Positions 54,034 to 54,312 of a DNA stretch of 64,000 nucleotides are shown here, one piece after another. Source of the stretch: Gammaproteobacteria bacterium (GTDB lineage: Bacteria; Pseudomonadota; Gammaproteobacteria; JAJFKG01). Numbering within the stretch: position 1 is the stretch's first letter; every line of letters begins with the position of its first letter. The stretch is from NCBI GenBank assembly GCA_965116795.1, contig OZ220716.1:1002503-1066502 (forward strand), read 5' to 3'. The notes beneath the pieces are model-generated. The model was not told the DNA's origin, searched no databases, and saw nothing but the letters and a program-made list of their open reading frames with translations. The position numbers and the translations under genes are program-made.

Positions 54034-54312
54034 CTCGCTGCGCGCCAAGGAGAGCGATAGCTCAAGGCGCGTAGTCCGCGGAAGCCGAGGCTTGTCATCG
54101 CAAACGGAGTTGCCGGAAAGCCAACGCTCGCAGGCAAGCGCAGTAAGCGATGACAAGCTATCCTCGGCGTCGAGTCACTTGAGAGGCGATCTGCAGTGTG
54201 CGTCAGTACACGTAGGAATCGGTGACGAGGACGGCCGCGGCAACTTAGGTAGTCACGTTAGCGAGTCGATTTTGGGCATGGATGAACGAAATCTTTCACG
54301 AGATAGTGACTC
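54034..54312 (+). ncRNA. Unassigned multibranch structured RNA/ssDNA element
   Basis: At least 8 nested helices; G-U wobbles work only on + strand; GC-rich island in an AT-rich spacer. Confidence 0.5.

Follow-up and report, generated by a model that had tools for sequence, protein, structure and literature searches.

The structured segment between the tRNA-Arg and tRNA-Glu genes is one copy of a dispersed mobile unit without genes, a real and apparently undescribed mobile single-stranded DNA element. Its insertion was shown to be precise and without target duplication, and its strand is predicted to fold as single-stranded DNA. From comparison of its sequence with those of its relatives, we lean slightly towards a reading in which this gene-less element may be moved as a folded single strand by host TopA, a type IA topoisomerase, in a peel-and-paste manner. 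We made this inference because the target matches the TopA cleavage motif and partner genes are missing. The wider claim, that the element would be a transposon without any transposase whose folded strand captures the essential topoisomerase I of the host, diverts its cutting and resealing into excision and integration at replication forks, and reaches hundreds of copies per genome, stands in our view at an even chance. To our knowledge, small bacterial mobile elements are described as relying on an enzyme of mobile origin: a transposase, a recombinase or a reverse transcriptase.

Copies, junctions and distribution

The window, which is the whole stretch of 64,000 nucleotides that was analysed, contains one copy of the element (Table 1). 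BLAST found no further copy in it, contrary to the kinship with other palindromes of the window that the earlier note had suggested. The limits given there (54034–54312) were replaced by those in Table 1. The element is 282 bp long, begins with CGCTG and ends with CAATTG. A copy count over the source genome (G000, one contig of 2.45 Mb), as had been proposed, returned nine dispersed copies, of which four were identical over exactly 282 bp and the other five matched at 89% (three copies), 85% and 71% (one copy each); three element fragments were also present. The four identical copies had exactly the same limits and unrelated flanks, and were therefore recently mobile. All copies lay at unrelated sites, several within genes and two in frame inside long ORFs, so the segment is not a non-coding RNA gene of a tRNA spacer. 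tRNA genes adjoined only the window copy, whose tRNA neighbourhood is incidental; the proposed link to tRNA integration is not supported. The IHF site noticed upstream likewise belonged to the flank of this copy only, as none of the seven other full copies had one within 200 bp, and the source genome contains 337 IHF-like sites. A conserved peptide was considered and rejected: one + frame was open in all eight full source copies, but lengths in the family are not multiples of three, and no conserved ORF was found in the element family.

Table 1. Coordinates of the element, its parts and its neighbours in the window.
Feature	Position	Strand	Evidence or remark
Mobile element, 282 bp	54036–54317	+	Four identical copies with the same limits; read contigs break at 54036 and 54317
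Target side of left junction, A-C-T-C-T	54031–54035	+	C at 54032 is the −4 cytosine
Domain 1: 9-bp helix P1 and inner hairpin	54038–54074	+	Covariation
Domain 2: P2, P3, P4 and two variable arms	54076–54240	+	Covariation
Domain 3: terminal stem, internal loop, apical hairpin	54251–54311	+	Covariation
Six-base right tail	54312–54317	+	C at −6 invariant; −4 is A in the window copy
tRNA-Arg(ACG), neighbour outside the element	53842–53918	+	
tRNA-Glu(TTC), neighbour outside the element	54586–54661	+	

Terminal inverted repeats were absent, the ends CGCTG and CNNNNN being non-complementary in the 34 aligned members. The overlap between flanks was 0 in 47 of 62 copies, 1 in 11, 2 in two and 4 in two, which is the chance level. 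Empty paralogous sites of one source copy and of two copies in another genome, G046, abutted with a gap of 0. No end-to-start circle junction was seen in the assembled contigs of eight runs, and such contigs drop rare forms.

The downstream flank was near random and the upstream flank was not. At the left junction, C at −4 was present at 132 of 134 sites and, in a separate metagenome scan, at 121 of 124 (252 of 257 unique junctions when pooled), and in G046 at 268 of 280. The scan patterns excluded the flank. T was the commonest base at −5 (120 of 257), −2 (101) and −1 (101) against a background of 24%, and also at +1, after the joint, in G046 (70 of 166 clean-tail ends, background 23%). The −2 position of G046 showed a tie between T (91) and A (90). 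At +1, A was not enriched, and 52 of 93 bases of the pooled set were W (p = 0.07). The target before the joint reads (T/A)-C-N-(T/A)-(T/C), then weakly T, with the −4 C as its only fixed position. Right ends had C at −4 in 72 of 93 cases found by an expression fixing −8 and −6. All eight full source copies ended in CAATTG or CAACTG, with A rather than C at right −4, and the C at −6 of the right tail (C277) was invariant in 34 of 34 members.

The + strand of the element lay on the G-rich strand, which is the lagging-strand template, in 234 of the 280 G046 copies, a bias that persisted within genes whichever way these pointed (30 of 34 and 29 of 43). The same orientation was found for eight of the nine source copies; among short loci in other genomes the bias, judged from local skew, was weak (43 of 75). 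Relative to the neighbouring gene, mixed loci gave 31 sense and 21 antisense copies (p = 0.21). Copies between divergent genes were not enriched (20 observed, 23.9 expected).

The family occurs in many Gammaproteobacteria with sizes of 229–336 bp; 62 full-length copies measured 229–317 bp, and one further source copy 336 bp. A pattern of the first 40 bases matched 121 loci in the genome collection (39 of 64 parts scanned), including Thiocapsa roseopersicina, Thiorhodococcus minor, a Solemya gill symbiont, Sedimenticolaceae and Legionellales, and 125 loci in the metagenome collection (8 of 64 parts scanned). The collections of viral contigs, phages and plasmids that were searched gave no match. 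Among 401 genomes of the class, 15 matched the pattern, with 210 exact matches in G046 and 37 in G233. G046, a long-read assembly with indel errors, carries at least 280 copies, one per about 10 kb.

Fold and covariation of the element

Compared with shuffled sequences, the + strand folded well both as RNA (z −5.26) and as DNA (z −4.12), with none of 200 shuffles as good in either case, and the − strand folded less well (z −2.83 and −2.19). Both the fold and the + strand polarity claimed earlier are supported, as is the 'ssDNA signal' branch of that interpretation. Inside the element, Rfam gave no match, either at the gathering score or at E ≤ 10.

The alignment comprised 34 of 37 non-redundant members, the three left out being the 336-bp copy and two members with internal deletions. 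For the 35 pairs of the consensus fold, 95.3% of cells were paired, and 22 pairs had two-sided changes. Both figures exceeded all 500 shuffles and all slid controls; the members are kin, so these comparisons are not probabilities. Seven helices covaried in the 34 homologs and make up three domains. The first is a hairpin that starts two bases in from the 5′ end, the second a multibranch region in the centre, and the third a stem on the 3′ side with six bases after it. In domain 1, P1 includes a conserved G-T pair and is followed inwards by an internal loop rich in purines (A-N-G-G-A) and by the inner hairpin. P1 was paired in 96% of cells with two-sided changes in three of nine pairs, more compensatory variants occurring at positions that the search pattern left free, and a tandem G-A replaced two pairs in 5 of 34 members. 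In domain 2, P2 (54076–54080 with 54236–54240) closes the domain, P3 (54084–54088 with 54164–54168) bears a variable long arm, and P4 (54174–54176 with 54230–54232) bears a second variable arm. These helices were 92–100% paired across the 34 members, with two-sided changes in 3 of 5, 4 of 5 and 1 of 3 pairs, respectively. Domain 3 consists of a terminal stem AGTCAC/GTGACT and an apical hairpin with a (N)GGA-type loop; its helices 5–7 showed two-sided changes in 5 of 6, 1 of 2 and 5 of 5 pairs.

All sequences quoted in the earlier note were found where it had placed them, and its seven GGA motifs are present. Its helices P1 (54038/54066), CCGCG (54076/54236) and GCCGA (54084/54164) were held by covariation in the 34 homologs, whereas its GTCAC/GTGAC stem was not conserved, two of the pairs forming in only 7 and 9 of 34 members. 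The conserved pairings are GTC 54174 with GAC 54230 and AGTCAC 54251 with GTGACT 54306. For the proposed outer helix from CTCGCT 54034, the first two bases lie outside the element, and the other four pairs were near-invariant (27–34 of 34) and so not judgeable by covariation. The suggested switch or pseudoknot GAGTCACT/AGTGACTC was not upheld, as four of its eight pairs formed in 1, 8, 11 and 18 of 34 members.

C-GNA-G loops are especially stable in DNA. With two closing pairs, C-GNA-G triloops numbered 98 in the 37 members (34 ± 6 in shuffled sequences), GNRA tetraloops were not enriched (38 vs. 37), and UNCG loops were depleted (3 vs. 14). With three closing pairs, the triloops numbered 30 (9 shuffled), and the reverse strand also gave 29. 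The motif C-A-N-G-G-A-N-G, which is the CsrA consensus, occurred 23 times compared with 4.2 in shuffles. The A-N-G-G-A of domain 1 (window 54047–54051) and the C-A-N-G-G-A-N-G of the domain 3 loop (54274–54283) resemble a CsrA site, and one protein-binding motif may be used at both element ends. The domain 3 GGA was lost in several family members.

Candidate mobilising enzymes

Bacterial TopA is described as cutting single strands four bases after a C and binding the 5′ end (PMC3467081; PMC7017377), and the rule of C at −4 as holding across bacterial TopA (PMC3467081). In vivo, E. coli TopoI is reported to act at the motif TCNTTA/T and to cut 4 nt past a C that is strictly required (PMC9352719). 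Such sites, with a nearly absolute C at −4, T at −5, −2, −1 and +1, and a single-stranded substrate, resemble the element target, which has C at −4 and favours T at the same four positions. The match is partial, given the tie at −2 in G046 and the lack of enrichment of A at +1. E. coli TopoI is also reported to be most active between divergent genes (PMC9352719), and the absence of such enrichment for the element is a point against TopA.

The source genome has one type IA topoisomerase. This TopA keeps R169 and D172 and has F at Y177 and Y at R173. F at Y177 is reported for reverse gyrase, and loss of R173 is reported to keep selectivity (PMC3467081), so the C preference would be expected to survive both changes. 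topA was found in all 11 element-bearing genomes searched, with no second type IA gene in eight of them; topA is universal, and its presence therefore shows little. Dependence on a TopA subtype was rejected since the subtype does not track the element: the DYLVGF type was not enriched, being present in 13 of the 15 genomes with the element and in 312 of the 401 sampled. The background tallies include four genomes marked as unpublished (G041, G134, G278 and G288), none of them element-positive, which underlie no other statement made here.

In the TopA reading, the strand would fold when it is exposed at the replication fork. TopA would cut the left joint, which, having been picked for its TopA site at insertion, would offer such a site in each donor, and TopA held by domain 3 would cut the right joint. 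Swapped rejoining would then peel the strand out as a circle or a TopA-linked strand and seal the donor, and the reverse swap at another TopA cut would paste the strand in. Copy number would rise, the template strand being left behind. The source right ends lack C at −4, yet the four identical copies were recently mobile, so a right cut set by structure would be needed; with A at right −4 in 8 of 8 full copies, domain 3 or a partner would have to set it. An accessory protein could act beside TopA. TopA is described as resealing its own cut.

A partner was searched for in several ways. No ORF-bearing (autonomous) version was found in the 121 + 125 scan loci, the source genome and 77% of G046; partial matches considered as candidates were truncations or other elements inserted within family members. 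A cognate TnpA element sharing the ends was not found either, in a search covering draft genomes and 77% of G046. The 116 nearest ORFs and a clustering of flanks revealed no recurring protein family beside the copies. Y2 was absent from G000, G046, G233, G049 and G101 (five of the six genomes searched, including both single-contig genomes) and present in G102. Y1 matches were found in 14 of 20 element-bearing genomes and not in the other six, several of which are drafts; G233 (37 pattern matches) and G101 (33 junctions) had none. No reverse transcriptase was found in G046 and G233. Judged from these sequence searches, no Y1, Y2 or reverse transcriptase family is common to the copy-rich genomes.

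The nearest known arrangement is that of IS200/IS605 (IS608, ISDra2) and PATE-type derivatives, which are described as structured single strands lacking terminal inverted repeats, as is the element. Their transposition is described as leaving no duplication, with a target motif 5′ of the left end and the active strand on the lagging-strand template (PMC5027513), and the element shares this IS608 topology, including precise insertion and a motif at the left end only. We consider it unlikely, however, that the element is a non-autonomous derivative moved in trans by an unlinked dedicated HUH (Y1 or Y2) transposase, as PATEs are by IS200/IS605 TnpA, with a guide base reading the −4 C. Such an enzyme would account for the variable right ends, Y1 matches are frequent in the genomes as given above, and orphan Y1 of subclass 2.3 is reported as common in Chromatiales (PMC6006769). 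On the other hand, an exact-pattern search found the signature of this subclass in 4 of the 20 genomes, G000, G046, G049, G233 and G101 all lacking it. In the source genome the only Y1 was TnpA of the IS200 type, and the copies belonging to it begin at TTTA. G046 has one Y1-like gene about 150 bp away from an element copy, but a single close neighbour is expected by chance at one copy per about 10 kb. IS200/IS605 targets are words of 4–5 fixed bases, whereas the element has one fixed C with weak T neighbours. Guide pairing between domain 1 and the target was sought over 28 position pairs involving four element positions, and no target position varied convincingly with them (lowest p = 0.006, uncorrected). 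The element further differs in its first hairpin, two bases from the joint, its three large covarying domains and the lack of a shared TnpA. It works like a non-autonomous IS200/IS605 element but fails the tests of target and partner.

The right ends, which are precise yet do not all have C at −4, could also point to a dedicated unrecognised enzyme or adaptor making the right-end cut or both cuts, for example a partner acting with TopA, or one that visits on a plasmid or phage. A protein partner is suggested by the size and conservation of the fold, and the distribution is patchy (15 of 401 genomes) though TopA is universal. With no recurring protein family beside the copies and no element in the phage, plasmid or viral collections, and with 8 of 11 genomes lacking a second type IA gene, we regard this as quite improbable. 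The RNA z value, the excess of the CsrA consensus and the mosaic haplotypes of G046 would fit a structured RNA (regulatory RNA, CsrA sponge, ribozyme or retro-element) spreading by reverse transcription. This seems very improbable to us, as orientation tracks replication and not transcription, the loops are GNA triloops without enriched GNRA and with depleted UNCG, the domain 3 GGA is not kept throughout, G046 and G233 have no reverse transcriptase, and neither 5′ truncation nor duplication was seen.

If the TopA reading is true, a TopA-run element would form a new class that uses an enzyme indispensable to its host, and programmed strand exchange between molecules would be shown in vivo for a housekeeping topoisomerase. 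The element would then be a natural, highly structured and functional single-stranded DNA, and it could be a starting point for scarless insertion of single strands that makes hardly any demand on the target. Should the enzyme not be TopA, there is still an apparently undescribed single-strand element family with an unusual target and an orphan enzyme. The literature searched, with ISfinder and most subscription journals outside its scope, contained no description of a TopA-mobilised element or of this family, and nothing on intermolecular strand transfer by type IA enzymes beyond a general review.

Other element classes and further observations

IS91 elements use a Y2 transposase and a CTTG/GTTC target. 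As in the element, their rolling-circle insertion leaves no duplication, and many right ends of the element family finish in CTTG. Membership was rejected, the element target being CNNN and Y2 missing in five of six genomes searched. IS110/IS1111 elements have a long specific target and non-coding ends shared with a DEDD recombinase element. One IS110 family of the source genome has its own long target and ends unrelated to the element, and the element was not assigned to this class. No profile match lay near either of the two IS110 families of this genome. A group II intron or retro-element was rejected from the lack of an Rfam intron match and of a reverse transcriptase in G046 or G233.

REP/REPIN sequences with RAYT are also dispersed structured repeats, some in frame in genes and targets for other IS. 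REP/RAYT is described as a 20–40 bp palindrome with a terminal GTAG or CGTC tag and a RAYT flanked by repeats (PMC3733652). The element differs in being 229–336 bp long and non-palindromic, with fixed asymmetric ends and no unpaired GTAG/CGTC tag; no RAYT gene flanked by element copies was found, and membership was rejected. Prokaryotic MITEs such as Coxiella QMITE1/2 are described as short, non-coding, multicopy and well folded (PMC10969869; PMC5896051), like the element. It has, however, no terminal inverted or direct repeats and no target-site duplication, its fold is strand-specific and it is GC-rich, so it was not classed with them.

Several observations concern individual family members. 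Across the G046 copies, about ten polymorphic sites are combined in mosaic fashion, and for most pairs of sites all four combinations occur, which may reflect gene conversion or an assembly-polishing artefact. Two tandem pairs in this genome (G046:C1:781286 and 903177) have a second copy starting two bases before the normal end of the first, that is, four bases after the invariant −6 C; homopolymer errors make these starts uncertain. A 106-base internally deleted member (L076:2935-3040) keeps both ends and has G instead of C at −4. IS110/IS1111-type elements are inserted within the members L188:2413-4100, L266, L044, L045 and L111, two such insertions lying at the same position, after GCCAT. 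Another member, L112, contains an insert that by motif presumably has a group II intron-like start. At the edge of a serine-recombinase island in the source genome (L287, G000:C1:1511388-1511441), domain 3 occurs isolated and with G049-like sequence, and neither a left end nor a transposase was found upstream of it. An identical source copy (L002:1350-1510, G000:C1:1645862) directly follows a short gene that, from its C-terminal translation, we take to be csrA. In G046 (L319, G046:C1:427682-431407), a copy lies just upstream of two genes, presumably dprA and smg, that precede topA; in this assembly, which is prone to errors, the reading frame of topA is interrupted.

Elsewhere in the window, an RNase P RNA (23345–23842), which occurs once in the genome, is enlarged at P12 by a self-complementary extension of unusual length (about 135 nt). 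A 70-nt near-perfect palindrome (53690–53759) abuts the tRNA-Ser 3′ end; it is also single copy and unrelated to the element. The source genome contains at least four other short repeat families with about 24, 17, 10 and 4–6 copies, three of them palindromic or with inverted ends and one CGTC-tagged. A 250-bp segment from the tRNA-Glu 3′ end (54653–54900) recurs at seven other sites (84–95%) and at three further, partial ones, and is the edge of a repeated prophage-like island running on to the right.
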